A DNA stretch of 63,220 nucleotides, filler included, from Stramenopiles sp. TOSAG23-6 (lineage: Eukaryota), in the NCBI GenBank assembly GCA_900128565.1. It is 32 parts of 32 records of this genome, joined end to end, with 100 filler letters (N's around TTAATTAATTAA, not from the genome) between each part and the next. Parts side by side here need not be neighbours in the genome. Positions count along the whole stretch, not along the records: positions 33,803 to 35,676 come from LT638494.1; 31 more parts are not named here. One strand, written 5' to 3'. Under the pieces are notes generated by a model that had not been told where the DNA came from, ran no database searches, and saw nothing but the letters and a program-made list of their open reading frames with translations. The position numbers were made by a program, and so were the translations under genes. How positions within the stretch are numbered: the first letter of the stretch is position 1; each line of letters begins with the position of its first letter. Of the stretch, positions 1,997 through 63,220 are shown piece after piece.

Positions 1997-2049
1997 TACG
2001 AAATTTTGTACCTAACGATTTNTTTTTGAAATATTTTTCCAAAATAAAT

Positions 2050-7362: not shown

Positions 7363-7476
7363 ATGTATTTTGGAAAAATATTTGAAAAAAATCTAAAAAA
7401 ATTTCTTAGGTACAAAATTTCCTATAAAAAAAAAAAAAAATTCGATTTTTTTGTAAAAAAAAATAATAAAACATAC

Positions 7477-12018: not shown

Positions 12019-12365
12019 GCGGTGGACCATTGGCAGCAGCAGGGAATTGTGGCACGTTTCTTGAAGTTCATTTACCTGTACGTTTTCCATTATTACATTT
12101 TCACCTGAATTGTTTTTTAATCCTATATAATAACGAAAAATGTAAAAAAATTGTATCGAATAAAAATTTCACGTATTTCCAAAATTGATTTTTTCTTCAA
12201 AATTCAGGGTCAACCAGAGATTCTTTCAGAAAAAAAAGTACCCGGGGGGTTTACTTCTGGATACCGCATGTTAAATCTACCACTGGAATTTAAAAATGAT
12301 AACAATACAGTTTTATGTGAAGGCGACTATGAAATTTGGTGGACGCAAAGACAACCAGGGACTAT
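12019..12365 (+). CDS. Unknown protein; exons 12019-12077 and 12208-12365
   Basis: Open exons joined in frame by GT-AG intron 12078-12207 (LEVHLP/GQPEIL). Confidence 0.5.
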
Positions 12366-12467
12366 GTATGTTTTATTTTTTTTCAAATTCGATTTTTTTT
12401 TTCGTACGTAATTTTGTACCTAACAAATTTAAGTTTTTTTTTTTTGAAATATTTTTCAAAAATAAAT

Positions 12468-15994: not shown

Positions 15995-16584
15995 ATACTT
16001 GTAAGAAAACTACACATAAAAACATTCCAACACTACATCTTGTTATATCACCTTCTGGAATCATAGCTAAGCCACCAGTCATTGAATGTGTGAAATTATT
16101 TAAAAAATTTTGAAAACGTTTGTTAGGTACAAAATTTCGTACGAAAAAAAAATTTCAAAAAAAAAAAATGAAATTCATGAGGAGGACATACATTACACAT
16201 TTTCTCAACATTTCAACTAATTCATAATACCAATATTTATGTTTGTACGCTGTAAACAATGAACCATATTTCAATTGTGCTGATTGATATTTTTGGTTAT
16301 TATATATATGCCCTAACCCTAATACTCGTAACTGCAATGGTGCAATTAAATAATGTATTTTGGAAAAATATTTCAAAATTTTCTTAAAAAAAATATTTTG
16401 TTAGGTACGAAATTTCGTACGAAAAAAAAATTCAAATTTTCAAAATAATAAAACATACATGACGTTGTCTGTATAAAATAATGAAATACAACAATGGTAT
16501 TCCAATCACATATATTACAATACCACTACTAGCAACAAACGCTAGTGTATTCCACTCATCATTACCACAAATAATATTTGGGTC
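15995..16584 (-). CDS. Multi-pass membrane region; exons 16584-16459, 16352-16192, 16080-~15995
   Basis: IVIYVIGIPLLYF, YGSLFTAYKHKYWYYELVEMLRK motif typical of protist ectodomain-TM proteins; GT-AT introns 16353-16458 and 16081-16191 restore the frame. Confidence 0.7.
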
Positions 16585-16700
16585 ATGTAGTACAAAACAA
16601 TATTTCAAATTTTTTTTTTTAGTTTCAAAAAAAAAAAAAAAATTTGTTAGGTACAAAATTTCGTACGAAAAAAAAATTTAAAAAAAAAAATAAAAGATAC

Positions 16701-17992: not shown

Positions 17993-18501
17993 ACAGCTCA
18001 TAATTTAAAACAGAAAATGCAGTCTAGTGGAAATACAAGGTCAACAGAATTATTACAACAAAGTTTGTACAAAGAATGTTTGAATACATGTATTGGTTCA
18101 TCATCTTTTACGTTGCCATACGGCTTAAATGTTGGATGCATTCTTCCTGATCAATGTAGGGTCATGTATGTTTTCGTCATTAGGGTTAGGGTTAGGATCA
18201 TTCATTTTTTTTATCCTACACAATTCCGTACCTAACGATGTTTTTCTAAAATATTTTTTCACAATACATGGGATCAGCTGCAGCCCCATTATGGTTAACT
18301 TTTTTAGCTCAAGAAAAAGAGCCTCATGATGATGATTCATCAATAAATAATTCAAAAACAATGAATCTACTACAAAATGATTTAAACAATAGCAAATCAT
18401 TTTCTAGTAGTATTCAAGACTTGGGTGATGCATCAGTGATTAGAGCAGCAAAAGCATCTGCGTCGCGAAGAAGTACTCTAAACTCGAGTGGATATAGACA
18501 T
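17993..18501 (+). CDS. PI3-kinase-like fragment (start of catalytic domain); exons 17993-18165, 18270-18501
   Basis: Spliced ILPDQCRV-M-GSAAAPLWLTF matches the PI3K motif ECRIMSSAKRPLWL. Confidence 0.65.
18166..18269 (+). mobile_element. Introner-like GT-AT intron containing TTAGGG repeats
   Basis: GTC AT|GTATGTTTT...GTACCTAAC...CACAATACAT|G GGA. Confidence 0.8.
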
Positions 18502-18906
18502 GTACGTTTTCATCATGAATTTCTAATTTATTTATTTTTTTCATGGAAAATTTCGTACTTTTCAAAAACGATTTTTTGTTTGGTATTTTCGTGGAGGATT
18601 AGAGTATCCTGCCTGGAGCAACCCATGACTTTCAAATCTATCGCTAATTTTCAGATTTTGTTTCGTATATATATCTCTACAATTTCAAATCCTATTTTTT
18701 TTTCTCATACTAAAATGTTTCCAACTTTTACACATATTTTTTACAATATATGACGTAAATAGAAAAGATATAAGTATAAATGGAAGTTATGCAAAATCGG
18801 TTCGAAGTATCGATGAGTCTGTAGAATACGCTCATTTATAAGATTGATTATATACATGAGATAAAAAATATTTTTATATCTTTTTATTTAATCCTTTTCT
18901 CNTTTT

Positions 18907-19719
<813 letters not shown>

Positions 19720-23101: not shown

Positions 23102-23743
23102 TTAAACAGCATGTCCTGTCCTATTTTCTGATATAAAATTTTCATCATTACCATCATACACGGGAACATGTATTGTGAAAAAAAAATATTACTTTTGAAA
23201 TTCGTTAGGTACAAAATTTCGTATGAAAAAAAAATAAAAATAAATTTTCATACTAAAAAAACGTACATATGGAGGTTCCTCTTCTTCTTCNAGGTTTTCA
23301 TCAGTAGTAACCCCTACAACATTATCAAATATAACATTACCAGCTGTTTCAAGAAAACTTTCTTTTGGTACACAGCATTTCTTATTTGGCCAAAAGTTGT
23401 ATGTATTTTTGAAAAATATTTCAAAAAAAATCCAAAAATATGTTAGGTACAAAATTTCGTACGAAAAAAAATCGATTTTTTTGTTAAGAAAAAAATAAAA
23501 CATACATTCACCAAGAAGAGCCATTGTACATGGAATAATCATTTTCGTAGTAATAAAACAATCGATAAGAATTCCAATGATGAGTAGAAAAGCAATTTCA
23601 TTCAGCGTCGGTGTTGCAGATACTAACAGAGAAAAAAATGCAACAACCATAACAATTCCAGCAGCACTAATGATGTTTGCAGTTTGGCTTATTGCCTTAA
23701 TAGTTGCATCTCTAATAGACGAACCACACCTGATTTCTTCAGC
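23102..23743 (-). CDS. MMPL/RND-family membrane protein, 3' exons 23743-23506, 23400-23267, 23167-23102
   Basis: AISQTANIISAAGIVMVVAFFSL...GILIDCFI...IIPCTMALLGEYNFWP; GT-AT introns 23401-23505 and 23168-23266. Confidence 0.8.
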
Positions 23744-23900: not shown

Positions 23901-24690
23901 GCTATCGATGTTCTTCAATCCATATTCTTCGCAATTAATGTACTTTGCATTTTTCAGAAAAAACAATTGACTCATTTCTAACGAAGTCACAAAATCCGCA
24001 TATTTTCGTCTCGTAGGCTCAACATACATTCCTGACTGTATAATATTTAAGGCATTAGCGACTATTATAGAAACATGCTCAAGTGGAAGTTTCTCTGATT
24101 TATTCGCTTTCGGGAAGCAAAACTTAAAAATTGAAGCTAAACTTTGGTTGGTCTCAAGACCTAATTTTGTAACACCAACTTGAGCTTTTAAATTTTCATA
24201 TTGAACCAAATGACCAAGCATCAGTACTGAGTAGTGGCACACATGCATCCTTTTCAGGTGGGGGATTTCTGATTGCTTGCATAGTGGTAGTTGTTGATTT
24301 TGAAAGTGACACCTCGAATAGAAGTCTAACGGTAATGTCCCCCCGTTTCACAATCCCCTGAGAGTTAGGGTCCCCTGACAGTTTAGCGGAATTTGTTATA
24401 TCAATACGAATTTGTGTATCTCCAAAATCCGTGTTTACTCGGAATATATTGCTATACTTTATATCAAGATTTAAAATATTGTATCCATGCATACACTTCA
24501 ATCCTTCAGCAATGCTTGGCAAGTGACTTAATCGCTCTGATATATTTAAATTGTTCAAAGTACCCAGAGGAAAGTATTCAGTAGCTATTACATGTACATT
24601 CACTACGTTGTCATACGTAATTCTACGTTCTTTCTTGTCATATAAGCCAACAACGTTGGGACAATCGACTGTTTTCAATATTGAATAAAC
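23901..24690 (-). pseudogene. Degenerate protein kinase-like sequence, frameshifted
   Basis: IATEYFPLGTL...IAEGLKCMHGYNILNLDIKYSNIF and DAWSFG motifs; split across frames with no clean N-terminus. Confidence 0.5.
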
Positions 24691-28361: not shown

Positions 28362-29049
28362 AAACAAAATCATAATTTTTTTATGAGTCAATATTTTAAA
28401 TTCATCAATCTTTTTATTTTTTTGTCTCATTATTTCTGCCGTTTCATCTTTAAAATGAATAAAAAATTGTAGAATGATTTCTCCATCTATTTATGATATT
28501 TTCATACCATACAACACAATATATATTGTGAAAAAAAATAAAAAATTGTTTTTTCTTAGGTACAAAATTTACTATAAAAAAAAATTAGACTAAACATTGA
28601 AAAAAAAAAAAAAAAAAAAAAATTGTTAGGAACAAAATGTACTAAAAAAAAAAAAAAAACATTGAAACGAAAAGGTTAAAAAAATCATGTGTGTAAATAT
28701 TGAAAATTAAAAAAAAAATTTAAAAAAAAATTCNAAAAAAAAAAAAAAAATGTTTTTCTATGAAAATGTACTACAAAAAAAAAATATTGAAAACATAGAA
28801 AAAACGTACCAGGCGATGAATTTCCAATGACATGAGAAAAAGTACTAATTACGGATGCTCCTGCAAGAGGCGCACCGATAGACCAAACCAATATTTCTGA
28901 TATAACTAAAATATTAAATGTCGGATTTAAAATTGTCTAAATAAATCGAAAATATTTGAATTTTTTTTTTTTTTTTGTTAGGTACAAAATTTTGTATGAA
29001 AAAAAAGATTGTAAAAAAATTATTTAAAAAAAAAATTACAAAAGCAGTG

Positions 29050-31561: not shown

Positions 31562-31881
31562 CATACCTCTGCTGCTCTGTAGTTAACCCAAAAGATGCCA
31601 CTGATAGGGAAGAGAGCACACAACTACACTTTCTAGCAATTGTGTGTGAATATGAATATCCATTCCTTTTAGTATATACCGAGTGTAATATATTCATACA
31701 GTACATTGTTTTGCCATTTGGTTTAAATNNNNNNNNNNNNNNNNNNNNNNNNNNNNNNNNNNNNNNNNNNNNTTAATTAATTAANNNNNNNNNNNNNNNN
31801 NNNNNNNNNNNNNNNNNNNNNNNNNNNNTACGAAATTTTGTACCTAACGATTTNTTTTTGAAATATTTTTCCAAAATAAAT

Positions 31882-33702
31882 GGGGTAACGGCAATCCAAT
31901 GTGGATCAATAAATGGGTTAAACCATCCAACCAGGATTTCAGGAATATTTTCTATTTACAACCTGTTGATAAAGACACCATCAAATTTGGTGTGTATACG
32001 ACTGATAATAATGCTGTTGAGGCTGATATTTCATCTTTGAAAATAAATGAATGGCACCACTACTGTGGCGTTTATGATGGTTCAAAAATGAGATTGTACG
32101 TTGATGGTCAAAAAAAAGGCGAAGAAAATGTTTCAGGAGTAATCTTTAACCAAGGAATAGAGGAAACAAATCACTTGGGAATATCATTTTGTAATGCTGA
32201 TACCAACAATGATGATGATTCGGATAGCTTCATTAAAAAATATGGGTGCTATGAAGGATTTTTATCTGACGTTCGAGTTTATAAGGATCCTTTGTCAGAG
32301 ACTGAAATAAATAATATATCTACATCAGAACTCCAAAATCAGAGCGATGTTACTCTGACGATTACATTTCCGAAGGCTCGTAATATCAGGGAAGTGAGGG
32401 TGCGCCCAGTTGGTAGGTCTGGTAATACTAATGGCAATGCCTTTAAAATTCAGTTGGGCGACGAGTACACATCCAACACTGAAAGAAAAGGTAGTGAAAA
32501 CCTTGGCTACGTATGGTCGAAAAAATTTAACGAAGTGGTAAATGTTGAAACAATCACCGTCACAGTGTTGTCAGTGGGAACATATGGTCCAATATTGGAG
32601 GAGCTGATGATATATGAAGGTGGTAGTGATGTTGTCTCGAGACGGCGTAGACTTCAAGAAGAAGACGATGAAACAGATCTTGTGTTAATAGACATCTCCT
32701 GTCACAACAGTTATGGCAACACTAATACAAAATGTTGGGGTTATCCTAATCTTGACACAAAATACAACACTTACTATTTTCCCTCTAAATCTGAATACGA
32801 AAATGGTTCCGAGGATGGTATCAGGGTGACACCTACACCGGGTATAGACTGTTACTACAGTAGTTGTAGTCAGGCTTTTTGGCATATGGATATGCTTTTT
32901 GATCAATCGGATCATTTAGCAAGTACCCCTGGTGGTTGGTGGCATACAATGGTTTATAATGATAGTACGAATCACAGCTACAAATTTGAATTTAGTAGAA
33001 CATACTTTATTGGAAAGGTTAGGGTTTTAGGTTCCAAGTATGATAATAATGTAAAACCTAGTCTGTTGATTGGTAGTAAATCATGGATGAGTACCGAAGC
33101 TTTGTCCAAACTAAATGCTCCAAGTGGTTCTAAATACAGCTTCAAAAATGTATGGGACCAGGATATCAGTCCTCCCGAAGAAGTGGGCCCAAACATTCAC
33201 GCAACTATAAGAATTACAGGATCACAACAAATTCAAGAAATTGAGTTCTGGGAGTATATCCCTGGTTTGAAAAAGATTGATTTATCGTGTCCCAATAATA
33301 ATTGTTGGGCTAATTATCAATATACAATTGACGGTGTTGCTACTGTGGCTGTGACGAACTCTTCCGGAAATATCTCCAGTGACGTAGAAAATTTCTATCC
33401 AGTTTTCAATGGTTCGTTTTCTGGAGGTATCGATAATAAGTATGCAAGTCCCTATCCCTATTATCTCAGTAGTAAGGGTGTACAAAATTATCATAGTCTC
33501 GATGTTACGTTTGGATCTCCTCGAAATATACAGTACATCAAAGTTTGGCCAAATGGGAAAGATAGTCCTCCTAGCTCTAGTTTCCGTATAGTAGCTGATG
33601 ACGTTTATCAATCAGATTGGATAAATATGAATACATTAAGATATTATCCAGCTCGGCAGTGGTCCAAAAGGTTTACTCCTCCGATTAGGATAACTAAAGT
33701 TT
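31882..33702 (+). CDS. LamG-like extracellular protein, variant B of 2050-3891
   Basis: Identical to variant A except in two divergent blocks. Confidence 0.75.
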
Positions 33703-33802: not shown

Positions 33803-35257
33803 TACACGCCACTGTTGGTCTTCAGCTAAATCAACTATTGCGGGAAATAGAGACTGTGAAAGCAGTCCAATCCCAATTACTTTATTCACATCAGATAATT
33901 TTGAAATTATGTTTAATCTTACATCAGGATTTGAATCCTTCAGCAACAAAAGAAACATCGGAAGAAGATGTGAAATAGTATTTTCTTTACCAAGAACTGG
34001 TGCCATTGCCATAACATCCCCTGCTAATGCACTTCGAACATGTTCAGATGCATCTGTAGCTAAACATCTTACCTGTGGAAGTATCTTCTCTAGAGCAGAT
34101 TGAACAGAAATAAGTTTCGCAATAGCTGATACTTTAGATGCAGCTGCTGTGCGAACTTCTGCCTCATCATCCTGTAGTAAAGATTGAAAAATATCTGTCA
34201 TATGAAGTTCAGTTGAAGCACGACCTAAGGGTGTACACAACTCGACGAATTGATTTGCTACAGACCAACGCACTCGCCAAGAAGGATCTCGTGCTAGTGC
34301 AATTGCCATAGGCAGAACTTCCGTAAGAACTCCATGTACTGTGAAAGAATTATTTTACGTTTGAAATTTGTTAGGTACGAAATGTAGTACAAAAACAAAC
34401 TAATTTCAATTTTGAAATGAAAACATACATTTTCGGGGAGAATACTCGCAAGTAAAATGCAGTTATCAACGGCTAATAATCGAACTGAATCCTGGTCATC
34501 TTTACTTAACTTTGAGAATAGAGGTATTATAGAAGTTGTCACCTCTTCTAGAGTCATTTGTTGACAAAACTTCCCCATGTGGGTAGCTGCAGACCTACGT
34601 ACCATAGGTGTATCATCTTTGGAAAGTTTCGTATATATATCTATCATTGCACGCTGATTTTCTGGGGATACTCGCTTATAACCGACCCAAAATAAACCAC
34701 ATGCTGAAATACGTGAAGTAAACCAGTCTTTTGTACCCAACCTTGTCAATAAGGGAACAAAGTGCATCGAAACTGACTCAGCCGTAAGCTGTTGTATGAC
34801 AATGCAAATTGAAGCCACTGCTCGATCACGGACAGTAATTTCTTCTACCGTACATAAAGCCTCTAATGGAACTAACAGATGGTGTGCGTGGTTTGCTCCG
34901 CCGATAAGGGCAACAAATTTACCGAGCTTCTCAGCTAGAACTAGTAACACTTCATCCTCGTCATCCACAGACTCGTTGACGAAAGGAATTAGCTCATCAC
35001 GTGTTCGATCCGTTCCAAGAGCTGCAGCGATTTCATCGAGTCGCTTCATCGACTTAAGGCGCAAATTAATATCATCATGCTTTAGATCATCTATCAGCTT
35101 GGCTATCGGGTATATATCTGTTATTAGGAAAATATCTAAGAAAACAGGAGAATAGTGAGGACAAATGTTTTGTTGAATAGTGAAAAGTACAATTTTTACT
35201 TTAGAGCTAGTATAGTGCCAATAACTTGTAAAAATATTGCATACCTGTTGTCGCCAT
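33803..35257 (-). CDS. PPP2R1A: Protein phosphatase 2A scaffold (A) subunit; exons 35257-35245, 35117-34429, 34333-33803 (3' partial)
   Basis: IYPIAKLIDDLK, LGTDRTRDELIPF, DWFTSRISAC, DDTPMVRR, DQDSVRLLAV, DPSWRVR HEAT repeats; intron 1 (35118-35244) is GT-AG. Confidence 0.95.
34334..34428 (-). mobile_element. Introner-like GT-AT intron in PP2A-A
   Basis: GAA AAT|GTATGTTTT...CACAGTACAT|GGA gives LP-ENGVLTE-VLP (7-residue spacing as in human LP-QEDLEAL-VMP); the nearby CAG is out of frame. Confidence 0.9.
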
Positions 35258-35776: not shown

Positions 35777-37575
35777 TTGATTCATACTTGATGATTGTAA
35801 AGGTTGTAGAGGTTGTTTAGTTAAAACTGGCTGAGCGAGAATTGGTTCTGAGNCTTGNTNCACTGTACTATATCGGTTAATATTTTTGATATGATTAACA
35901 GAGAGGGAGCGCTTGCGTAGTATAGTAGCAAGGGTATCATTGATATCATATAACTCAGAATTTTCAACAACGGCACGAAAACGACCAGCACCAGATCTAG
36001 AAATTCGAAGACCTCGTTTTAGGCCATATGTATTTTTTAGTGCTTTTAATAATTTATACAGGGTAGGATAACATGTATTTTGTAAAAATATTTCAAAAAA
36101 AATCGTTAGGTACAAAATTTCGTACGAAAAAAAAGATAAATTTGAAATTCAATTTTGAAATCATACATGTGCTAGATAATGTATCCTTTGAAAGTGCGAA
36201 TGAAACTGTAGGATCTATTTCCATTTTAATGATTTTTTCGATGGTAGTTTTTGATTTATCAACATAGCAAAGACCTAATTCTTTTGATGAAAAATTTCTC
36301 AACCGAACTACAAATGTCCCAACATTTTCATTTTGTAGAACATCCACTGCATTATCCCACGACATTAGAGGACTAAAATATCGAAATCCACGATCAAGAA
36401 GTTCATCTTCACCAGACCAATTCATTCCCATACTATAAAAAGATTTGGCAGTACTATCATGATTTCTCTCAGATGATTTGGATATTTCGGGAATTTTGGC
36501 GGGAATTACACTTATAGGATGCAATGGTGCAATTTGTTTTCCAATCCAAGGAGCATTTCTGGTCCGATATTTGAGGCTACTCATTCTGCCCTTTCTACTT
36601 CGGGCTTTTTGGCATGACACACATACACCAACAGCAAGACCAGGTCTGAACTCGAGCGGACGATTGCATCGCACACAATTTTTTATTTTACTTTCTGTCA
36701 CCTTGGATGATGATATGGTATTCTTTTTTATTTTACTTTCTGTCACCTTGGACGATGATATGGTATTCTTTTGTACAGGTACCTGAACTGAAAAGTGATC
36801 ACCCGGCACAACTCCAGCAGGGATTGTTATTGTTGCTTCTGTAGTAATTTCTCCTATTCGAACTGAAGCATTTATTTGATCTCCTCCAACTGAATGTTCA
36901 GGACAAGTAATTAAATGCTCTTCAAATTCTTCATCAGATGTATCTTTATTATCTACATCGATTTTACTGTATGATGAAAAAATATTTCAAAAAAAAAATC
37001 ATTAGGTACAAAATTTCGTACGAAACAAAATCAAATTTGAAAAAAATAAAACATACCTTTGTACCATTGAACTTCTTTTCCTCATTTTACTCTGTATCAT
37101 TGAACTTCTTTTCCACGTGATATTTTCATCTTTTTTACGAATCCACTTTCCAGGAATTCCATTGTATAAACATTCCGCTTCATCTCCATCAACACGGAGA
37201 ACATCAGCAACTAACCAAATTTTTCTACTCCTAGAATATGTTAATATTGAATCTCCAACGTAAAGAAACTTTTTACTATCTTTGTTTGGAATAGTAAAAC
37301 TATTCTGAGTAATTAGGGTTGGGAAATTCAAATCTTGATTCAAATGTTGATTCAAATGTTGATTCAAATGTTGATGTAAATCTTGATTCAAACCATTAAT
37401 TTTTTCTGATATCGGTTCTTTTATGCCAATAATGGATGTATCCTCTTGTACTTCAATTGAAACATTTTGTTCATAGAATATCATAACTGGTTGTAAATGA
37501 CCTTTTATACATCGACTTCTGACTATATCCCAGGAGCCAACATGAATTACATTTTTATCATCAAAAAGAAGCCAT
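35777..37575 (-). CDS. Multi-exon protein with an SH2-like domain; introns 36073-36166 (GT-AT) and 36967-37056 (GT-AG)
   Basis: YFSPLMSWDNAVDVLQNENVGTFVVRL...LGLCYV...YPTLYKLL SH2 pattern; both joins are in frame. Confidence 0.65.
36967..37056 (-). mobile_element. Introner-like intron with AG duplication, giving a canonical GT-AG
   Basis: CAA AG|GTATGTTTT...core...CATACAG|T AAA. Confidence 0.8.
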
Positions 37576-37845
37576 ATATAGTAAAAAAATATACCAAATT
37601 CGAAATTCGTTAATTACTCAAAAAAAAAGAAAATATTTTTTTAAGAGTGNNNNNNNNNNNNNNNNNNNNNNNNNNNNNNNNNNNNNNNNNNNNTTAATTA
37701 ATTAANNNNNNNNNNNNNNNNNNNNNNNNNNNNNNNNNNNNNNNNNNNNTCAAAAAAAATTCTAAAAAATTTGTTAGGTACAAAATTTCGTACGAAAAAA
37801 AAAATCGATTTTTTTTTTTACCGTAAAAAAAAAAAATAAAACAGA

Positions 37846-38258
37846 CATGAAGGTAGTTCACCGTATTGTACTTGTTGAATTGCGTATATACATAATTCAC
37901 AATATCCATGTTCACCTGAATTTTTTGCTTGTACGGACATTTTAACTTTTTGTTCCATTTTTGTACTTAATTTTGTAGTTATTTTTGAAGCCATCTCTAC
38001 AAAGGATATTGGCATTGTATGTTGATTTGATGTGTTCTTTGAATACAAAGGATCGATATTATACTTATTATACATCTTCGACATGATTTCGTTCGGTCCT
38101 CTCTGTCTTTTGATTTGGCGTTCGGTGTCGTTTTTATCAAACATGTTTGAGAAAGGAATGAAAGGAGTAACGTGGAATCCGCCGCCGCTCCCCATGGTGT
38201 GAGTAAAACATGAACAAAGCCACACCGTTAAGAAACAAGAAAATTGTGTACAGTACAT
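37846..38258 (-). CDS. Secreted uncharacterised protein, first exon (second copy ~61455-61867)
   Basis: Signal-peptide-like start; GYCELCIYAIQQ; runs into a family intron with an atypical donor. Confidence 0.55.
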
Positions 38259-38770
38259 TCCTTGATATATATACTATGCTTGCTGAATGATAACGTCAGT
38301 GTTTCATATATATATATATATCAATAGGGTTTAAATTGGGTTTATTTGTAATATAGAGTTTACAATATTTGTTTTTGTTCAACAGATCAAAAGAGAGAGA
38401 GAGAGAGATCGACATAAAAACGAATAATTTTTCAAAAAAAATTTCTTCGATTCCAAAACACGAAATCTGATCATTTTGTTATAACGGTTCAATTTTTTTT
38501 TAGATTTCATTTTTTTTTAGATTTTTTTTTGGTGTTTTTTTTTTTTTTTTGTGTGTTTTTCAGCGTTTTTCAGCAAGCGATCTTTTTTAACTGTTACATC
38601 TGAATGCTCTACTGAAAAAACTAAATAGCAGCACTTTCAGATGATATAACTATTAGTAATAATAAAGTAAAGTAGAATATAGCACGATTAATTACTCGGA
38701 TGAATGACATACATCATACACCGAAGAAAAAGACACAGTAAAGAATGTGTCTTGAATAGATCCTTACACA

Positions 38771-39614
38771 ATGTCTAAAGGACGATTTTCGGCCTTTTCT
38801 TTTTTCGTAGCACGTAATGCTGCTTTAGCAGCTGGTGTCGCAACGTCTATGAGATATTTCGTAGGTGATAGCTTATGTCAACGGTACGAAAACCAAGTAA
38901 AGCGACATCATACAAAAGATAGTACTATTTCAACACACACACACGCAACGAACACAATGACAACCACAGTGTCCAAAACTAAACTATTGGAATGGTGGAA
39001 CCCATTTCGCACAAGTATATTTGCTACGTTTGGTATGGTGTACGGAATTGGTCCTGGTTATTTCTGGTATAACAAGGTTTTACCTCGTTTCTTCAAAGGA
39101 ATACCTCTACGTGCTGCAATATTTGATGTATTAGTGCAATGTCCTGCAATATATTTCCCTTTATTTTATATAACCAAGAGTACATTTGAACATTTTGATG
39201 ATGAAAGCTTTTTTGACCAACAATGGAATACAAGTCCTAACCCTAACCCTAACCCTAACCAGAAAAATGGGCTTACTTTGATACAATCTGCCTTATCCAA
39301 CTACCAGAACAATATAGTAAAAGATATGCAAGCTTTAATGTATGTTTTATTTTTTTTTCATCATGAATTTATTAATTTATTTTTTTTTTGAATTTTAAAT
39401 ATTTTTTTTCGTACGAAATTCTGTACCTAACAATTTTTTTTCAATTTTTTTTTTAAATATTTTTCCATACTACATAACATTTTGGTTACCTTGTCATTAT
39501 ATAAATTTCAGGTTTGTGCCAATTCATTTTCGCATGCCTTTCATGGGAATCGTTGGCGTTGCTTGGGTCTTCATTTTGAGTCGTATAAGAGGAGGAGGTG
39601 GTGTTTTAGATTAG
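38771..39614 (+). CDS. Mpv17/PMP22 family membrane protein; exons 38771-39339, 39476-39614
   Basis: GDSLCQ, RT..FATFG, spliced ALI-TFWLPCHYINFRFVPIHFRMPFMGIVGVAWVFILS. Confidence 0.88.
39340..39475 (+). mobile_element. Introner-like GT-AT intron
   Basis: TTA AT|GTATGTTTT...CCATACTACAT|A ACA TTT TGG restores the Mpv17 C-terminal motif. Confidence 0.85.
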
Positions 39615-39934
39615 TTTTATATNNNNNNNNNNNNNNNNNNNNNNNNNNNNNNNNNNNNNNNNNNNNTTAATTAATTAANNNNNNNNNNNNNNNNNNNNNN
39701 NNNNNNNNNNNNNNNNNNNNNNTAAAATTTTTTTTTTTTTTTGTGTTTGAGTAAGTTAAAGAACGAACAGGTTTGTGTTTTTTGTTGGATCGTATCACTC
39801 GTACATTATCATGACGTACATGTATTGTGAAAAAAAAAAAATTACAAAAAAAATTTTTTGAAAATTCGTTAGGTACAAAATTTCGTATGAAAACTAAAAA
39901 AAAAAAAAAAAAAAAAAATTAAAAAAAAAAAAAA

Positions 39935-43977: not shown

Positions 43978-44560
43978 TAAAAATTTTTTTAAAAAAAAAA
44001 TTTTTTTTTTTTTTTTTTTTTTCGTACAAAATTTTTTTCCTAAAAATTTTTTTTTTTTTTTACTAACCAAAAAAAAAAAAAATTTTGAAATATTTTTCCA
44101 AAATACATATGATAAGGAACGAACAATGAAAGTTTTACTCCGTACTCTACAAGATCCTCCACCGTCACTAAAGACGTATGAAGAATATGTAGGTTTTCTT
44201 TTTTAATACGAAATTTTGTACCTAAACCTAAAAAAAAAATTTAAAAAAAAAAAAAATATTTTTTCAAACTACATGGAGACACTGGAAAAAAACCCAAAGA
44301 TTTTAAAAAAGCGTTTAAAGATTTTTACAGCGTTTGTTTAATCAAAGATCCAAAAAAGAGACCTACAGCTTCGAAATTACTTTCAAAACCATTTCTTACT
44401 AAATTAACAGTTAAAACAGGTCATTTGGAATCTCTTGTGACATTGTTGCCTTCAGTTGGTATGTTTTTAGTGTCTAAAAAAAAAATTCAAAAAAAACATT
44501 TCATACGAAATTTTGTACCTAACAAAAAAACATTCAAAAAAAAATTCAAATTTTTTTTTT

Positions 44561-44642: not shown

Positions 44643-45225
44643 AAAAAAAAAATTTGAATTTTTTTTTGAATGTTTTTTTGTTAGGTACAAAATTTCGTAT
44701 GAAATGTTTTTTTTGAATTTTTTTTTTAGACACTAAAAACATACCAACTGAAGGCAACAATGTCACAAGAGATTCCAAATGACCTGTTTTAACTGTTAAT
44801 TTAGTAAGAAATGGTTTTGAAAGTAATTTCGAAGCTGTAGGTCTCTTTTTTGGATCTTTGATTAAACAAACGCTGTAAAAATCTTTAAACGCTTTTTTAA
44901 AATCTTTGGGTTTTTTTCCAGTGTCTCCATGTAGTTTGAAAAAATATTTTTTTTTTTTTTAAATTTTTTTTTTAGGTTTAGGTACAAAATTTCGTATTAA
45001 AAAAGAAAACCTACATATTCTTCATACGTCTTTAGTGACGGTGGAGGATCTTGTAGAGTACGGAGTAAAACTTTCATTGTTCGTTCCTTATCATATGTAT
45101 TTTGGAAAAATATTTCAAAATTTTTTTTTTTTTTGGTTAGTAAAAAAAAAAAAAAATTTTTAGGAAAAAAATTTTGTACGAAAAAAAAAAAAAAAAAAAA
45201 AATTTTTTTTTTAAAAAAATTTTTA

Positions 45226-49607: not shown

Positions 49608-49848
49608 TACGAAACTTTATACCTAACGATTTTTATCATGATTTCGTGTTTTTTTTCACAAAACATGGCAGCAATGCGTGCGTTCTGGAAACCGTCAGAG
49701 CCAATATCTATCAAGTTGAAAGCTTTGTATTCATTATTTGCAGGTGATGATGACATGGTTGGTTTAGCAGAATTATTTAGTATATGTAGGTTTTTTTTTT
49801 TTTTTTTAAAAATTTTTTTTTTTTTTTTTTTTTAAAAAAAATTTTTTC

Positions 49849-49892
<44 letters not shown>

Positions 49893-49900
49893 CAATACAT

Positions 49901-50233
49901 GATCAAAACAAGAATGCAAGGGTTGGAAGCATCAAAATATTCAAGTATTGTTGATTGTTTCAAAAAAGTATTGAATGATGAAGGTCCCGCAGCTTTCTAC
50001 AAAGGAGTCGGTGCCCGCTTAAGTCGTGTTGTCCCAGGTCAAGGAATAATCTTTATGTATGTTTTATATGAATTTCTAATTTAATTTTTTTTTTTTTGGT
50101 TTTTTGGTTTTTTTTTTTCATACGAAATTTTGTACCTAACAAATTTTTTTAGATTTTTTTTTGAAATATTTTTTCACAATACATGTCATATGAATCAATT
50201 TCAAATTTCTATGAAAGCAGGTTAGGAGTATAA
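49901..50233 (+). CDS. Mitochondrial tricarboxylate/citrate carrier (SLC25A1-like), last exons 49901-50056, 50185-50233
   Basis: IKTRMQGLEASKY...EG..AFYKG..RL.RV.PGQGIIF-M-SYE; GT-AT intron 50057-50184. Confidence 0.85.
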
Positions 50234-50375: not shown

Positions 50376-51310
50376 TTAATCAAAATCGGAATCTGAATCT
50401 GATAAAATTTCCACTTCAAATTTAGTTTCTTCATTTTTGTTTTGTTGTGTAACTGAAGAATCCCAAGGAAAAGTTAAGTCAACATTATCATCATTATCAT
50501 TCATATTACCATTGACATTATTTGTATTATTAATAGTATTAGTATTATTAATAGTATTATTAATAGTATTAGTATTATCAATAGTATTAGTATTATTAAT
50601 AGTATTAGTATTATTAATAGTATTAGTATTATTAATAGTATTATCAATAGTATTAGTATTATTAATAGTAGTACCATCATCAGAATGTACAAAACTGTCT
50701 GAATCATCAGAATCGTTTAAATCGTTTAATTCCATTTCAGACAATTTTTCAAATTCTTGATTCATTGACGAGGTATTCTTATTATGATAATGAATAACTT
50801 CACCAATCGCGGAGTCATCGACAAAAATATCCCCATGAAATAAACATTTTGGAAAAATATTTGAGAAAAAAAAATCGTTAGGTACAAAATTTTCAAAAAA
50901 AAAAAAATTTGAAAAAAAATTTGAAAAAAAATAAAACATACAAAAATTTAGGAAGAGAGTCTCTCATATCAATCATAATATCTTGTAAATCCAAATAATA
51001 CTTATGTGGTATAATACCACCAGCTGCAAATGCTCTATTAATTGCACTTGCTTTCTCATCTTCAGTAATTCCACCATGTATTTTGGAAAAATATTTCAAA
51101 AAATCTAAAAAAATTGTTAGGTACAAAATTTCGTACGAAAAAAAAATTCAATTTCAAATTTAAAAAAAAAAAAAAAACATACATCTTCTTCCATCCATTG
51201 AATCTGTTTTAAACCTAGTTTCACATCACGCATCCATTGTGTACGGAGTCTACATCGACCAATATGAGGCATAAAACGACATATATCTTCCCAATCATAT
51301 CCGATGGTAC
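50376..51310 (-). CDS. Uncharacterised protein, last exons 51310-51183, 51075-50942, 50841-50376
   Basis: In-frame joins across family introns 51076-51182 (GT-AT) and 50842-50941 (GT-TT); NTINNT repeats. Confidence 0.55.
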
Positions 51311-52464: not shown

Positions 52465-53351
52465 TTGAAAAAAAAAAAAAAAAAAAAAAATTTTAATTTT
52501 TTAAAAAAAAAAAAAAAAAAAAAATTTTAAATTTTTAAAAAAAAAAAAAAAATAAAAACGTACCCATTCACTCCTAAAAGTCCAAAACATTCACCTTTAG
52601 GAATCCCAAGTGAAAAATCACTGACAGCAATTTTTGGTCCTTGAGACGTTTTATATATTTTACGGACATTTTCAAGTATAATAATATCATTCATTTTGTT
52701 TGCTTCTCCACTTGAAACACGAAATCTCTCTGTTTTTACATCCTCGTCTTCAAATGTATTCGTTTGTTTTGAGTGTTGTAAAGGACCAATATTTTTTCCA
52801 CTACTATTATTGGATATTGTTGGATCTCTCAAACAAGGAAAAAGTCTCAGTTGTATATCTTTATTATAATCAAGCCATTCTATAAAAAATACAAGAACTG
52901 AATGTATTTTGGAAAAATATTTCAAAATTTTTTTTTTTTCGTAAAAAAAAAAAAAAAAAATTGTTAGGTACAAATTTTTTTTTTTCGTAAAAAAAAAGAA
53001 AAAAATTCAATTTTTTTGTTAAAAAAAAAAATAAAACATTCATAAATGATTACATGAGAAGCTAAACAAAGACAATCTGTTCCTGCAATTTGCATATCCA
53101 ATGGTGAGAGTTCAACACCGAGACCACCAATAAAGAATGAAATTAATTCTTTCAATGTTATATTCATCAATGCTTTAGAAAAACAAAATGGAGGAAAAAT
53201 ACGAAATATCCAACGCAATTTCAATCCTAAATCTTTTGTTCCGAGTAAATCAGTTAAATCCCATAAAATAAAATCAGTAATTAACATTAAAATAGAGCAG
53301 ATAAAACAAAGCACCAACATGGCAACTTGTGCAGTTCCATATCGTTGAAAT
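51625..53351 (-). CDS. ABCA-subfamily transporter, second TMD/NBD; exons 53351-53042, 52901-52564, 52414-51625
   Basis: [26 protein letters not shown] Walker [48 protein letters not shown]. Confidence 0.95.
52415..52563 (-). mobile_element. GT-AT intron splitting Walker A
   Basis: AAT GG|GTACGTTTT...CACAATGTAT|G GCT GGT AAA is the only GT-donor register giving GVNGAGKT. Confidence 0.88.
52902..53041 (-). mobile_element. Introner-like GA-AT intron
   Basis: ATT TAT|GAATGTTTT...CCAAAATACAT|TCA GTT gives [12 protein letters not shown]. Confidence 0.75.
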
Positions 53352-53504: not shown

Positions 53505-54184
53505 GTTTAACCTGACGTGTGTCATCATTAGTTGGAAAGGGTATAGACGGATCATATTTTTCTGTACAAAATCTTGCCAATCCATCGTCAAACAAATAAA
53601 TGCAAAGAGGGTCAACAGAAGTTACTGCAACATAAAGACGTAAATCAAATTTTAGTCCGTCTAATAAAAAAGGATCAGCAATGTATCGTTGAACAATAAC
53701 TTTGCTTTCATCGTCAGGTTGTGCAAACAAGTTGTGTTTTTTGCGAAGTTCACGTTCAAAAACTGTACAATTAGAAATATGAGACGTTATCAGGGAAAAT
53801 AAAAGTCTCTGGAGCAATGCCTTTAAATGGTAAACCACAAATCCGTTCCATGCAGGCTAAACGCTGGGCAAGAATATCCTTGTAGCTTAAAGAATGAAAT
53901 AGAGGAAAGTGGTTAAGCTTGCGGTGACCTTTGTGGAAATTCCACGCATGGTCCATATTACCCTTATATGTAACACCATAACATGCATCCCATGGGCTAT
54001 TCCACTGATACCCCGAAAGTAAGATTTGTGAGTATCCAGCAGTAGTGAAAGCGTCGACTAACGACTTTTTCAGACATCCAAAGAAGGTAAGTTTGTCCTC
54101 ATCCGTCAGTTTGAGTGGAAATACTTTCCCCTTAGGCTGGGGACGAGTTTTGTAAAGCTTCTCGGGGTAGTTAAAGAAAACAAA
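53505..54184 (-). pseudogene. Tubulin-tyrosine-ligase-like (TTLL) fragment, frameshifted near 53775
   Basis: [56 protein letters not shown]; the WIVKP segment is apparently missing. Confidence 0.6.
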
Positions 54185-54770: not shown

Positions 54771-55369
54771 TTTGTCCCAAAATTTAAGTCCACCCGTTGA
54801 ATGGTCTAAATTGAAGTTCGCATCTGAAATCCACCAATTTACTGTTATTGCCGCATTATCAGAATGCATTTGAAGACCTGAAGAATTTTTCATTAGTCTA
54901 TAACCCCAAACTTTTTGCAATCGATGTTTTCCAAATAAATCTGGCATTTGCTTACGAAGTTGTTCAGCAATCTTTAATATAATATGTCCTGACATGCCAA
55001 CAGTATTATCTGATCCTAAATAAGTTGGAACATCATCCCAAAGAAAGGGAAGATGCCAAATCATTGNNNNNNNTTTGTCCCAAAATTTAAGTCCACCCGT
55101 TGAATGGTCTAAATTGAAGTTCGCATCTGAAATCCACCAATTTACTGTTATTGCCGCATTATCAGAATGCATTTGAAGACCTGAAGAATTTTTCATTAGT
55201 CTATAACCCCAAACTTTTTGCAATCGATGTTTTCCAAATAAATCTGGCATTTGCTTACGAAGTTGTTCAGCAATCTTTAATATAATATGTCCTGACATGC
55301 CAACAGTATTATCTGATCCTAAATAAGTTGGAACATCATCCCAAAGAAAGGGAAGATGCCAAATCATTG
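54771..55369 (-). CDS. 2OG-Fe(II) oxygenase-like fragment present twice (54771-55066, 55074-55369)
   Basis: VWGYRL...GLQMHSDNAAITVNWWI...GGL HxD motif; exact duplicate around a 7-N gap. Confidence 0.55.
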
Positions 55370-55582: not shown

Positions 55583-55822
55583 AATATATTTAACCACTAA
55601 TTCATGTCTATGCAAAAAACGTGTTACAATTCCAGGAATCCGAAAGATATAATGAAGATCTGTAAATACTGACGTGAATCGTTGATGCGTGATGGCTCTA
55701 TTCAATAATAATCCAGTACCGGGATCTTCAGTTCTGTATTGTGAAGAAACACGAAAAAAAAAAAAAAAACGTTAGGTACAAAATTTCGTACGAAAAAAAA
55801 AATTTGGAATTTGAAAAAAAAA

Positions 55823-55855
<33 letters not shown>

Positions 55856-57152
55856 ATACATTCGAACACTAGCTCTTCCTTTCACACCTGGTGACATTGA
55901 AACAAATATTTTATATAGTGAATGTATAACGACTGATAACAAGTCGATGTTATTAGGGTTAGGGTTAGACACATTTTCAGAACGACTAGGGTTAGGGTTA
56001 GAAAGACTTTTGACTACTGATGGAACTGTAAATAGTTGAACTGTCATTTGTATTTTGGAACAATATTTCAAAATTTTCTATAAAAAAAAATTGTTAGGTA
56101 CAAAAATTTTTTACCAAAAGAAAAAAAAATAAATTCGAAATTAAAAAAATATATATAAAAAAAATTGTTAGGTACAAAATTTCCTATGAAAAAAAAAATA
56201 TAAATTCGAAATTGAAAAAAAAAATAAAATCATACATTGGACGCAGCACCAACATCTTCCGTACCAACACCAACAAAATATTGATGACTAACATATTCGT
56301 AATGATAAGCTAATGACAATGCAACGGCTCTTTTAAATTTGGGTAAGATTACTGGATTATGAAAAAATATCAAAATAAAATAAAGTTTGGTAAAACATAT
56401 TTTCAAATATATTTTCAAAAAAAAAAAAAATCAAAAAAAAAAAATTCATAAATTCATAAATTCATAATGAAAAAAAAAAACATACAAATTTTTGAAAAAA
56501 GAGACGTAGTCAGTGACGTCATTTGTTTTGGAAGTAAAGCACCTGATGATAGTAACGTCCCAATTGCATGTTTTGAGTTTTTCCGCACATCTAATCTTGG
56601 TGAAAGTTGATAAATTGTGTCATTTACACCACGTGATGAAGAGACATTTAATCCATTAGGGTTAGGGTTTACATAGGCAGGAAAAAGAATTCCGTCATTT
56701 TCTATTTCATCATCTTCATCTTGAAGACCAATCATATCATGAAAAAATTCAGGATCATTCATTTGTTCAACAATATCATTAAAATTATTAGCATCAAAAT
56801 CAAAATATTCCTCATCCACATCATCAAAATCAGCATCATCAATATATTCGTCATCAACCTCAACATCATCATCGTCAATATATTCGTCATCATCAACATC
56901 ATCATCATCATCATCATCATCAACAGCATCATTCATATTAATATATTCATCCTCAAAAATATCAGGGGGAAGATCATCAACATATTTATCAACATAATCA
57001 TCACCATCATCAATCATTGCATTTGAAGTAACACTAGGGTTAGGGTTATTTGAAGTAACACTAGGGTTAGGGGTTTCTGTATTTGAGTATTCTTCATTAT
57101 TATATTCATTATAACGATTCATTAAGTCCTCCAAATCATTTGAACTATCCAT
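55583..57152 (-). CDS. UBR1/PRT6-like N-degron E3 ligase fragment; introns 56352-56485 (GT-AG), 56048-56235 (GT-AA), 55734-55859 (GT-AG)
   Basis: FKRAVALSL..HY...MTVQLFTVPSV...LLSVVI...RFTSVFTDLHYI matches UBR1 (YKKLFA..F..YY...SVQMFTVPTL...RV..VICDLKYI). Confidence 0.75.
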
Positions 57153-59021: not shown

Positions 59022-59397
59022 GTACGTTTTCAGTATGAATTTCAATTTTTTCAATTTTTTTTTTCGTACGAAATTTCGTACCTAACAAATTTCGAATTTA
59101 ATTTTTTTCACAATACATGAACGTATACAAAGACTTTCTAAAGGACACCTTTGTTTATCGACATCTCTCGCTTTTTGCTTTGTCGCATGTCGTTTAAATT
59201 TTGAACCTGTACGTTTTTTTTTTTTTATTGAATTTTTTTTTTTTTTTTCATACGAAATGTTGTACCTAAGAATTGAATTTTTTTTTTTTTTTTTTTNNNN
59301 NNNNNNNNNNNNNNNNNNNNNNNNNNNNNNNNNNNNNNNNTTAATTAATTAANNNNNNNNNNNNNNNNNNNNNNNNNNNNNNNNNNNNNNNNNNNNA

Positions 59398-61041: not shown

Positions 61042-62368
61042 TTTGAAATTTGAAGCATTTGGTAAGTAGTGTAGTAATTAGAAGGAGGATTTTTTATTGC
61101 TTATCAACATTTAAAAAAAATTGAAAAAAAATCAAAAAATTTTGAAATTTTTTGAATTTTTTTTTGTTCTTTGGAGGTCATAGTACTGTTTATTGCTTCT
61201 ATGTGGGATGGGTGGTATTGGGATGGGTTTTTATTGGTATGTGATTTTATTAAGTTTTNNNNNNNNNNNNNNNNNNNNNNNNNNNNNNNNNNNNNNNNNN
61301 NNTTAATTAATTAANNNNNNNNNNNNNNNNNNNNNNNNNNNNNNNNNNNNNNNNNNNNTCAAAAAAAATTCTAAAAAATTTGTTAGGTACAAAATTTCGT
61401 ACGAAAAAAAAAATCGATTTTTTTTTTTACCGTAAAAAAAAAAAATAAAACAGACATGAAGGTAGTTCACCGTATTGTACTTGTTGAATTGCGTATATAC
61501 ATAATTCACAATATCCATGTTCACCTGAATTTTTTGCTTGTACGGACATTTTAACTTTTTGTTCCATTTTTGTACTTAATTTTGTAGTTATTTTTGAAGC
61601 CATCTCTACAAAGGATATTGGCATTGTATGTTGATTTGATGTGTTCTTTGAATACAAAGGATCGATATTATACTTATTATACATCTTCGACATGATTTCG
61701 TTCGGTCCTCTCTGTCTTTTGATTTGGCGTTCGGTGTCGTTTTTATCAAACATGTTTGAGAAAGGAATGAAAGGAGTAACGTGGAATCCGCCGCCGCTCC
61801 CCATGGTGTGAGTAAAACATGAACAAAGCCACACCGTTAAGAAACAAGAAAATTGTGTACAGTACATTCCTTGATATATATACTATGCTTGCTGAATGAT
61901 AACGTCAGTGTTTCATATATATATATATATCAATAGGGTTTAAATTGGGTTTATTTGTAATATAGAGTTTACAATATTTGTTTTTGTTCAACAGATCGAC
62001 GACGAGAAAAAAGAAGAACAAACAAAAAAAACCAACCAACAATCAAAGTATAAAGGAATAATTTTCAAAAAAAAAAAAAAAATTCTTCGATTCCAAAACA
62101 CGAAATCTGATCATTTTGTTATAACGGTAGATTTTTTTTTTTGGTGTTTTTTTTTGGTGTTTTTTCAGCAATCGATCTTTTTTAAGTTTAACTGTTACAT
62201 CTGAATGCTCTACTGAAACTAAATAGCAGCACTTTCAGATGATATAACTATTAGTAATAATAAAGTAAAGTAGAATATAGCACGATTAATTACTCGGATG
62301 AATGACATACATCATACACCGAAGAAAAAGACACAGTAAAGAATGTGTCTTGAATAGATCCTTACACA

Positions 62369-63212
62369 ATGTCTAAAGGACGATTTTCGGCCTTTTCTTT
62401 TTTCGTAGCACGTAATGCTGCTTTAGCAGCTGGTGTCGCAACGTCTATGAGATATTTCGTAGGTGATAGCTTATGTCAACGGTACGAAAACCAAGTAAAG
62501 CGACATCATACAAAAGATAGTACTATTTCAACACACACACACGCAACGAACACAATGACAACCACAGTGTCCAAAACTAAACTATTGGAATGGTGGAACC
62601 CATTTCGCACAAGTATATTTGCTACGTTTGGTATGGTGTACGGAATTGGTCCTGGTTATTTCTGGTATAACAAGGTTTTACCTCGTTTCTTCAAAGGAAT
62701 ACCTCTACGTGCTGCAATATTTGATGTATTAGTGCAATGTCCTGCAATATATTTCCCTTTATTTTATATAACCAAGAGTACATTTGAACATTTTGATGAT
62801 GAAAGCTTTTTTGACCAACAATGGAATACAAGTCCTAACCCTAACCCTAACCCTAACCAGAAAAATGGGCTTACTTTGATACAATCTGCCTTATCCAACT
62901 ACCAGAACAATATAGTAAAAGATATGCAAGCTTTAATGTATGTTTTATTTTTTTTTCATCATGAATTTATTAATTTATTTTTTTTTTGAATTTTAAATAT
63001 TTTTTTTCGTACGAAATTCTGTACCTAACAATTTTTTTTCAATTTTTTTTTTAAATATTTTTCCATACTACATAACATTTTGGTTACCTTGTCATTATAT
63101 AAATTTCAGGTTTGTGCCAATTCATTTTCGCATGCCTTTCATGGGAATCGTTGGCGTTGCTTGGGTCTTCATTTTGAGTCGTATAAGAGGAGGAGGTGGT
63201 GTTTTAGATTAG
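62369..63212 (+). CDS. Mpv17/PMP22 protein, duplicate copy; intron 62938-63073
   Basis: Identical to 38771-39614. Confidence 0.85.
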
Positions 63213-63220
63213 TTTTATAT

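Follow-up and report, generated by a model that had tools for sequence, protein, structure and literature searches.

In a 63,220-nucleotide (nt) stretch of DNA from the genome assembly of Stramenopiles sp. TOSAG23-6 (GCA_900128565.1; hereafter the window, spacers included), unrelated protein-coding genes are interrupted by similar short inserts that begin with GT and end with AT. One of them, a 95-nt insert in the PP2A-A gene, is present in environmental DNA and missing from mRNA, and is a genuine intron. Judged by their sequence, the inserts are copies of one repeat family. The explanation that we favour, and consider probable, is a high-copy, introner-like family in an AT-rich, uncultured marine protist, with U2-like splicing signals and a non-AG 3' end, spliced as GT...A[T/G]. 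The window consists of 32 contigs of 1,862-1,896 nt, ordered by length and joined by N44-TTAATTAATTAA-N44 spacers, and distances across spacers are meaningless.

An intron ending in AT in the PP2A-A gene

An earlier note on this DNA had proposed nine inserts with GT...AT ends as introns, and we found these ends at all nine coordinates. The insert in the PP2A-A gene is the one for which DNA and RNA could be compared. Its features, and those of a second intron in the same gene, are:

34334-34428, minus strand: family intron of the PP2A-A gene, 95 nt, GTATGT...GTACAT (sequence, skip in RNA, retention in DNA, homologue alignment)
34420-34428, minus strand: 5' splice signal GTATGTTTT (sequence, family logo)
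34429-34430, minus strand: exon AT, identical to the final two bases of the intron (34334-34335); the next G extends this to a 3-nt ATG direct repeat
34370-34378, minus strand: box GTACCTAAC, a putative branch site lying 38 nt upstream of the 3' end (GTACCTAA is invariant in the 21-copy alignment)
34334-34346, minus strand: 3' tail TTTCACAGTACAT; the CAG at 34339-34341 is bypassed (sequence and RNA)
35118-35244, minus strand: ordinary GT-AG intron of the same PP2A-A gene, without the family box or tail (127-nt skip in RNA)

On the minus strand the insert reads ccccgaaaAT/GTATGTTTTC...GTACCTAAC...TTTCACAGTACAT/ggagtt, with slashes marking exon-intron boundaries here and below. A 259-nt contig from the polyA metatranscriptome run X10 covers 34257-34332 and 34428-34610 with 0 mismatches, skipping 95 nt; at this junction (34332 to 34428) three letters fit either side. 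A further RNA run, X6, has no contig at this intron. Thus, the insert leaves the RNA, as the earlier note had expected, and the CAG that it had pointed out 5 nt upstream of the 3' end is bypassed. A 2,059-nt contig from the seawater DNA run X1 keeps the 95-nt insert, with no letter differences at the insert ends, and no joined, insert-free form of the PP2A-A locus was seen in that run. Since the insert is present in DNA from an independent sample and missing from mRNA, its terminal AT is not an assembly error, a doubt raised when the introns were proposed. The gene also carries the normal GT-AG intron that had been described in it: 35118-35244 (127 nt) is skipped in RNA runs X10 and X7. The homologue P0001, which is 67-70% identical, aligns without gaps over the junction left by the 95-nt insert. 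We conclude that this insert is a genuine intron.

A short direct repeat stands at both insert borders, and the window does contain artefacts of amplification and assembly, among them a palindromic contig of 1868 nt, contigs present in duplicate and shifts of frame at homopolymers. Both facts suit a set of explanations other than splicing: removal at the DNA level, in the manner of the internal eliminated sequences of ciliates; an amplification or assembly artefact; or template switching by reverse transcriptase at the repeat. We regard these as extremely unlikely. The independent metagenome contig retains the insert with identical ends, so that the insert is not absent from bulk DNA, and the joined form was found in polyA RNA, beside a spliced canonical intron, and not in DNA. 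Moreover, inserts break conserved codons of the ALDH, kinase, carrier and PP2A-A genes, and hence the cell must remove them. A 3-nt repeat would also be short for template switching.

Evidence for precise joining at inserts in other genes

All nine inserts start with GTA[T/C/G]GT, end with AT on the gene strand and directly follow an exonic AT. Removing them joins long open reading frames (ORFs) in nine of nine cases, and shifting the 3' cut by 1 or 2 nt shortens the downstream ORF in every gene except Mpv17, where a shift of 2 gives 49 versus 46 codons and Pfam settles the frame. The claim that removal restores both the frame and the family motif is borne out for ALDH, the HPW of the kinase, the FMSYE of the carrier, MMPL and PP2A-A. 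Specifically, the ALDH profile is contiguous across both inserts in that gene (318-363, 365-431 and 436-461, with one split codon per junction; Pfam). The Pkinase profile stops at 261/263, exactly at the CAMK junction, over which a protein from a relative, P0121, reads VLSHPWIAG without interruption. Homologues of the citrate carrier read GQGIIFMSYE over 50057-50184, and the MMPL profile (228-304) reaches the final residue before 23505. Thus, contiguity with homologues or Pfam profiles supports precise joining at about six loci besides PP2A-A.

The host genes of the family include those for ALDH, PP2A-A, a kinase, a carrier, an MMPL-family protein and Mpv17. Two gene labels given previously were not confirmed: for 'PI3K' we found 0 Pfam families in both exons flanking 18166-18269, and for 'OSR1' the sole match is to a kinase C-lobe, below the Pfam cut-off.

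We extended the frame test to the 28 family introns that have both ends in the window, taking the longest ORF on each side. By this crude measure 21 of the 28 are in frame and seven are not. The Mpv17 intron is among the seven and is rescued by Pfam; at 23266 the ORFs are too short; at 29266 and 56235 the 3' ends are uncertain; the insert at 49786 is probably misassembled; and those at 7476 and 16700 are real conflicts. The GT-AG control verified by RNA fails the same test, one of its flanking ORFs being short, which indicates that the test is noisy. We dropped 49786-49900 (plus strand) as a test case: it lacks a box and contains runs of A40 and T20, and the window lacks a stretch of about 16 residues (..NNPIDM) that carrier homologues show ahead of IKTRMQ.

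The other family introns catalogued in the window are:

19026-19188, minus strand: family intron, ALDH (P/W/GGYK) (ends, frame, Pfam)
19404-19567, minus strand: family intron, ALDH, ends ATATAT (ends, frame, Pfam)
6973-7066, minus strand: family intron, CAMK-PH kinase (HP/W), ends TCCAT; missing from the relative's P0121 (frame, Pfam, homologue)
6506-6620, minus strand: family intron, same CAMK-PH kinase gene (repeat copy, frame test)
7363-7476, minus strand: family intron, same CAMK-PH kinase gene; removal as GT..AT is 1 nt out of frame
18166-18269, plus strand: family intron with (TTAGGG)2 inside; 'PI3K' label not confirmed (ends, frame)
18502-18751, plus strand: long family intron, 250 nt, ends ATATAT
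39340-39475, plus strand: family intron, Mpv17/PMP22 gene; duplicated at 62938-63073 (ends, Pfam)
50057-50184, plus strand: family intron, citrate carrier (GIIF/M/SYE) (ends, frame, homologues)
44189-44274, plus strand: family intron, kinase C-lobe gene; mirrored at 44929-45014 in a palindromic contig (ends, frame)
23401-23505, minus strand: family intron, MMPL-family gene (ends, frame, Pfam)
23168-23266, minus strand: family intron, same MMPL-family gene; flanking ORFs too short for the frame test
12366-12467, plus strand: family intron ending ATAAAT
12078-12207, plus strand: degenerate family-like intron, CT/GTACGT...CAAAATTCAG/, AG end
16353-16458, minus strand: family intron
16585-16700, minus strand: family intron, donor GTATCT; removal as GT..AT is out of frame (+2 or -1 nt)
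36967-37056, minus strand: family member with canonical ends, AG/GTATGT...CATCATACAG/; flanking ORFs of 185 and 290 codons, in frame
55734-55859, minus strand: family member ending CACAATACAG
56352-56485, minus strand: family member, TT/GTATGT...CATAATCCAG/
59022-59118, plus strand: family intron, exon CT before GT, ends ACAT; in frame
52902-53041, minus strand: family intron, donor GAATGT (GA for GT); joins ORFs of 121 and 124 codons in frame
51076-51182, minus strand: family intron
36073-36166, minus strand: family intron, donor GTATGA
28521-28809, minus strand: family intron with two boxes, TG/GTACGT...ATATAT/

The inserts form one repeat family

Short words shared by the inserts are far more frequent in the window than expected. 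The word ATGTANGTTTT occurs 24 times, against 0.54 expected and a maximum of 3 in 100 shuffles, and the 19-mer ACGAAATTTTGTACCTAAC occurs 21 times, against 0 expected. Allowing up to one mismatch, GTACCTAAC has 55 matches, including a few chance matches and duplicates. We count approximately 45 non-redundant family copies in about 60 kb. Each is built alike. The 5' part is AT/GTAYGTTTT followed by a T-run and then a variable part; the middle is TTTCGTACGAAA, a perfect 12-nt palindrome that runs into TTTTGTACCTAAC and is followed by the box GTACCTAAC; and the 3' part is a T-rich stretch, then (G)AAATATTTTT, then CA[A/C]AATACAT/. An alignment of 21 complete copies has an invariant GTACCTAA and near-invariant ends, and subsets of copies share further blocks that have no obvious role as signals, for example ACAAAAAAATCGAATTT and CATCATGAATTT. 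Taken together with its flank, the element has the ends ATGTAT...ATACAT, which make up an inverted repeat of 6 nt and include a direct repeat of 2-3 nt. All copies are sense-oriented within genes. None of the family blocks is found in the GT-AG intron of the PP2A-A gene (35118-35244). To judge from these shared blocks, the inserts derive from a single repeat family, and AG was not lost separately in each of many unrelated introns; hence, the terminal AT would have been inherited with the element.

The DNA run suggests that the family extends well beyond the window. In run X1, the core of the PP2A-A intron has a read depth of 300-1391, up from 6.5 (the rise should not be taken as a copy number), and of the 65 contigs matching the PP2A-A locus, 59 are only 90-95% alike. 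These observations suggest many further family copies. Searches with the box 19-mer returned three loci in JGI metagenome contigs, all unrelated chance matches, and 0 matches in viral contigs.

GT-AT had been put forward as the majority class here. It does dominate among recognised introns, with at least 43 family 3' ends against one RNA-verified non-family intron, which ends in AG (a biased comparison, non-family introns being harder to find), but these ends belong to one repeat family and do not represent independent introns.

Giardia and Trichomonas have long fixed signals at the intron 3' end. The likeness among the inserts might similarly reflect a lineage that demands long fixed splicing signals, so that all its introns converge on one sequence and no mobile family exists. 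The best-conserved blocks are indeed the donor, the box, the T-tract and the 3' end, and the family shows no demonstrable target-site duplication, no autonomous element and only sense copies within genes. We nevertheless think convergence quite unlikely. An RNA-verified intron of the very same PP2A-A gene has no family block and ends in AG, subsets of copies share blocks that no signal would seem to require, and the relative's protein P0121 lacks the copy at 7066. Contig ends hint modestly in the same direction: 24 of 64 lie within 120 nt of a family mark, compared with 25% of all window positions, a modest excess, and the family repeat may help to fragment the assembly.

P0121 (171 residues; 89% identical to the kinase exon, compared with 6776-7364 on the minus strand) starts at the M of ..ACAT/G and reads through the site of the 7066 intron, that is, without that copy; as a protein only, it could derive from partly spliced RNA. 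Its end, GMYYFC, resembles read-through into GTATGTATTATTTT at a position where the window has no intron. The comparison hints at gain and loss of family introns.

Intron ends and skipped AGs

Among 38 curated 5' ends, the counts by position are G1 38, T2 37, A3 37, G5 37, T6 36 and T7-9 35-38, with position 4 being T in 27, C in eight and G in three. The exon before these ends has A as its penultimate base in 31 and T as its last base in 35; when exon flanks are left free, AT precedes 24 of 38 NNGTANGTTTT sites. The 43 curated 3' ends comprise 39 AT and four AG at the same aligned column, with A at position -2 in all and C at -3 in 35. A fifth AG end, that of 12078-12207, is outside these 43. 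The following exon begins with G in 25 of 43, and the junction codons are conserved residues built from AT: W in ccAT/GG and M in AT/G.

The AG-ending members are 36967-37056, 55734-55859, 56352-56485, 12078-12207 and one with its 3' end at 14034. All five have more diverged tails (CATCATACAG, CATAATCCAG, CAAAATTCAG, CACAATATAG and CACAATACAG), which would be compatible with older copies in which T changed to G.

AT, and often ATG, is repeated at both borders, so that RNA fits several boundary pairs alike. The GT-AT pair given in the earlier note is the one that comparison across the family favours; RNA alone does not separate it from TG-CA or AT-AC. Moving the boundaries 2 nt leftward would make these AT-AC introns (ATGTAYGT...AATAC), removed by the major spliceosome through the known compatibility of a first A with a last C. 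That register yields an identical mRNA at PP2A-A and at every exon with a final AT (31 of 38 in the curated set, 24 of 38 with free flanks), it accounts for the C at -3 in 35 of 43 ends, and U2-dependent AT-AC introns are known (PMC1557818). It becomes improbable once the exceptions are considered. Copies exist that have CT, TT, TG or AG before GT, and these would become CT-AC, TT-CC and so on; the ends ATATAT, TCCAT and ATAAAT would give AT-AT, AT-CC and AT-AA. The five AG-ending members align AG with AT, not with AC. At 59022, where CT precedes the GT, the flanking ORFs (78 and 59 codons) are joined only by a GT-AT or TG-CA cut, and AT-AC is thereby excluded for this copy. In addition, GTAYGT at +3 to +8 would probably lie outside the usual register of U1 and U6 pairing. 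These comparisons favour GT...A[T/G] as the one description that would fit all members.

AGs between the box and the 3' end are skipped in eight of 21 copies, including the CAG 5 nt upstream in PP2A-A. Thus, the 3' end seems to be set by the context of the tail and not by the first AG. It had been suggested that a U2-like spliceosome with relaxed recognition of the 3' dinucleotide acts here. The U2-like signals stand, namely GTAYGT, a CTAAC-type box and a T-tract; 'relaxed' does not describe an end that is specified while upstream AGs are skipped. The box resembles TACTAAC and is followed by the T-tract. Its distance from the 3' end is 34-50 nt in most of 38 ends with a box, and reaches 66 nt, with values above 100 nt in the ALDH copies.

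Introns of the minor, U12-type spliceosome have the donor consensus RTATCCTT and the branch motif TCCTTAAC, placed approximately 10-20 nt before the 3' end, and lack a pyrimidine tract. A minor or hybrid spliceosome might process the family if the tail TTYCA[AC]AAT, 6-10 nt from the end, were the real branch region. GT-AT is tolerated in U12-type splicing, the family donor GTAYGTTTT agrees with the U12 consensus RTATCCTTT at seven of nine positions, the T-run at +7 to +9 is invariant, and the box ACCTAAC resembles TCCTTAAC. Furthermore, Physarum U12 introns with a TA direct repeat and inverted ends have been read as transposon-derived (10.1101/2020.10.12.336362). The donors, however, have G5 in 37 of 38 and T6 in 36 of 38, hallmarks of U2-type introns, where U12-type introns have CC; C occurs at +5 in one of 38 ends and at +6 in none (0 of 38), so that the U12 donor consensus is not matched. 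The box is mostly 34-50 nt from the end and has a long T-tract, unlike the U12 arrangement, and the TTYCAMAAT tail is only a loose match. Rfam detected no U11, U12, U4atac or U6atac in the 63-kb window, although 63 kb says little. We therefore consider it unlikely that a minor or hybrid spliceosome removes these introns.

Source and quality of the sequence

The PP2A-A contig is matched in seawater DNA metagenomes (up to 0.89 of sampled words) and in 12 RNA runs, with 22 runs listed in total, which indicates that the source is an uncultured marine protist. Named protein matches for PP2A-A come from mixed lineages, and those for the kinase exon lean to stramenopiles (Peronospora, Ectocarpus and Ascophyllum). 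The GC content of the contigs is 0.21-0.47. The upper value belongs to a single contig (25886-27769; GC 0.47, against 0.21-0.39 in the others) that has no family marks and may come from another genome or compartment.

Several contigs show irregularities. The contig at 43668-45535 is a perfect 1868-nt inverted palindrome, like amplification chimeras. Those at 1997-3891 and 31829-33702 are 93% alike over their full length, those at 37750-39622 and 61359-63220 are 98-100% identical, and contig c28 holds an exact 296-nt tandem copy (54771-55064 versus 55074-55367). Long ORFs switch frame within exons at about 24250-24350 and at 53774-53856 (both minus strand), with no intron nearby; in contig c13 the switch adjoins a G6 run. 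Such switches at homopolymers would point to assembly indel errors in the window.

Telomere-like repeats, (TTAGGG)2-3 or (CCCTAA)2-3, occur 15 times in 63 kb, at 7632, 14182, 16311, 18180, 29639, 39241, 40815, 41396, 42168, 42699, 42919, 43136, 55953, 56656 and 62839. Some lie within coding exons, where they are read as NPNP, and one is inside the family intron 18166-18269. They may be a second kind of short pervasive insertion.

Discussion

The probable explanation of these data is the introner-like family with U2-like signals and a non-AG end. Each copy would bring its own donor GTAYGTTTT, a branch-site-like box GTACCTAAC after a 12-nt palindrome, a T-tract and the tail CA[A/C]AATAC-AT. Copies would sit in unrelated genes directly after an exonic AT (often cAT/Gg), and splicing would remove the element together with one copy of AT, restoring the original codon (W in ccAT/GG, M in AT/G). 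The last intron base would then be T where other introns have G. We infer that a major-type (U2) spliceosome picks the 3' end from the context of the tail rather than from AG; a donor with G5 and T6 would fit major-type pairing with U1 and U6. The family may have spread by insertion, either through DNA transposition with duplication of an AT target or through reverse splicing into AT/G sites, and the rare, diverged AG-ending copies would be older ones in which T mutated to G. The largest version of this claim, that an abundant oceanic protist has tens of thousands of AT-ending introns from one burst of a mobile family, processed by an ordinary major spliceosome that ignores nearer AGs, seems to us possible but to have somewhat less than an even chance of being right.

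A number of observations weigh against this explanation. Support from RNA comes from a single contig (depth 3.1) at a single locus, where the AT/ATG repeat leaves four equivalent registers: GT..AT, TG..CA, AT..AC and TA..TG. The lists of ends are partly circular, as 24 of the 38 5' ends came from a pattern that demands AT and 3' ends were placed by likeness of the tail. The introns at 7476 (+1 nt) and 16700 (+2 or -1 nt) are out of frame under GT..AT; a sequence error is possible in these two cases, and so is a variable cut, made either at the inner GT of GTATGT or at a terminal AC. No family copy outside genes or in antisense was seen in the window, and a scan of 10 long ORFs found no transposase domain. 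Flanks show no locus-specific match beyond the constant AT, positions -3 to -6 matching in 8-9 of 28 copies compared with 6-9.5 expected. With the constant AT as the sole match at each locus, a target-site duplication cannot be demonstrated, and we rejected a duplication of at least 3 nt, flank matches beyond AT being at chance level. The terminal AUGUAU/AUACAU helix closes the minimum-free-energy fold in five of eight copies, with z from +0.10 to -2.15 versus shuffles, and judged by eye there is no covariation between donor position +4 and the base it would pair with. Since folds are at the level of shuffles and covariation is lacking, we read the inverted ends as a relic of insertion and not as a requirement of the RNA; splicing driven by a hairpin or other structure was rejected on the same two observations. 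Finally, an Rfam scan of the 63-kb window gave 0 matches and no snRNA.

Introners, described from Micromonas, Aureococcus and others, offer the closest set of likenesses: a marine protist with many short, nearly identical introns in unrelated genes, an element that carries splice signals, a short direct repeat with inverted ends, and a message that is restored (PMC9860276, PMC11282704). The families described in the parts of these papers that we drew on are GY-AG, whereas 39 of 43 ends here are AT. An introner target duplication would be expected to vary with the locus, while the same AT stands at every locus here, a kind of ambiguous case that PMC9860276 describes. Surveys of introners start from annotated introns and accept AG and AC 3' ends (PMC12130899); consequently, an AT-ending family would be missed or discarded. 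The family is best filed as an introner kind with a non-AG 3' end, a combination that is new relative to described introners.

Other systems share some of these properties. Amoebophrya introners (PMC7789003) are also repeats with 3-5-nt direct repeats overlapping their borders, inverted repeats, ambiguous boundaries and a non-canonical majority. Differently from the family here, they are described in the parts of that account that we drew on as having no dominant dinucleotide pair and hairpin-forming repeats of 8-20 nt, with a mechanism proposed to be apart from the ordinary one. Our family has one dominant pair, an intact GTAYGT, a CTAAC box, a T-tract, a 6-nt terminal repeat and no significant fold. 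The non-conventional introns of euglenids resemble it in direct repeats that look like target duplications and in inverted ends able to pair, but in the parts of PMC11282704 that we drew on they have no GT donor or T-tract and rely on end pairing (PMC11282704). The introns here keep canonical signals, and their terminal pairing lacks covariation. In Fritillaria, according to what Henriet reportedly proposed in 2019, the major spliceosome is thought to process introns that mostly break the GT/AG rule, and a link to transposon insertions was suggested. Tunicates, in the parts of PMC13326754 that we drew on, have also lost the 5' GT and show diverse ends, whereas the family described here is uniform and departs from the rule in its last base only.

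As for the pair itself, GT-AT is known as a rare pair in U12-type introns and also from single U2-type introns (PMC1557818; for Physarum, 10.1101/2020.10.12.336362). The U12 introns of Physarum further share a TA direct repeat, inverted ends and mass intron gain (10.1101/2020.10.12.336362). In those U12 systems, as far as the portions of these sources that we drew on go, GT-AT is a small minority, and here it is the majority (PMC1557818; 10.1101/2020.10.12.336362); the family also differs in having GT and not CC at +5/+6, a box far from the 3' end and a T-tract. The earlier remark that this class had no description therefore needs narrowing: the pair has been described, and our literature search found neither an abundant GT-AT class nor a GT-AT introner, though supplementary tables of introner surveys could list one.

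Recognition of AG at the 3' end is among the most conserved steps of splicing, and introns that end in AT and skip AGs isolate that step. A natural system of this kind would allow U2AF35, Prp8, Slu7, Prp18 and the snRNAs to be compared with those of ordinary relatives. If the largest version of the claim is true, this lineage would be the first whose majority class pairs a non-AG 3' end with canonical GT and branch signals, and it would be a live example of new introns that later 'mature' from AT to AG; the rare, diverged AG-ending copies suggest how a new intron turns ordinary. Gene-calling software that insists on GY-AG (or AC), and introner surveys that do the same, will break most genes of this organism and miss the family. 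The family adds a case for bursts of mobile introns shaping the genomes of marine protists.

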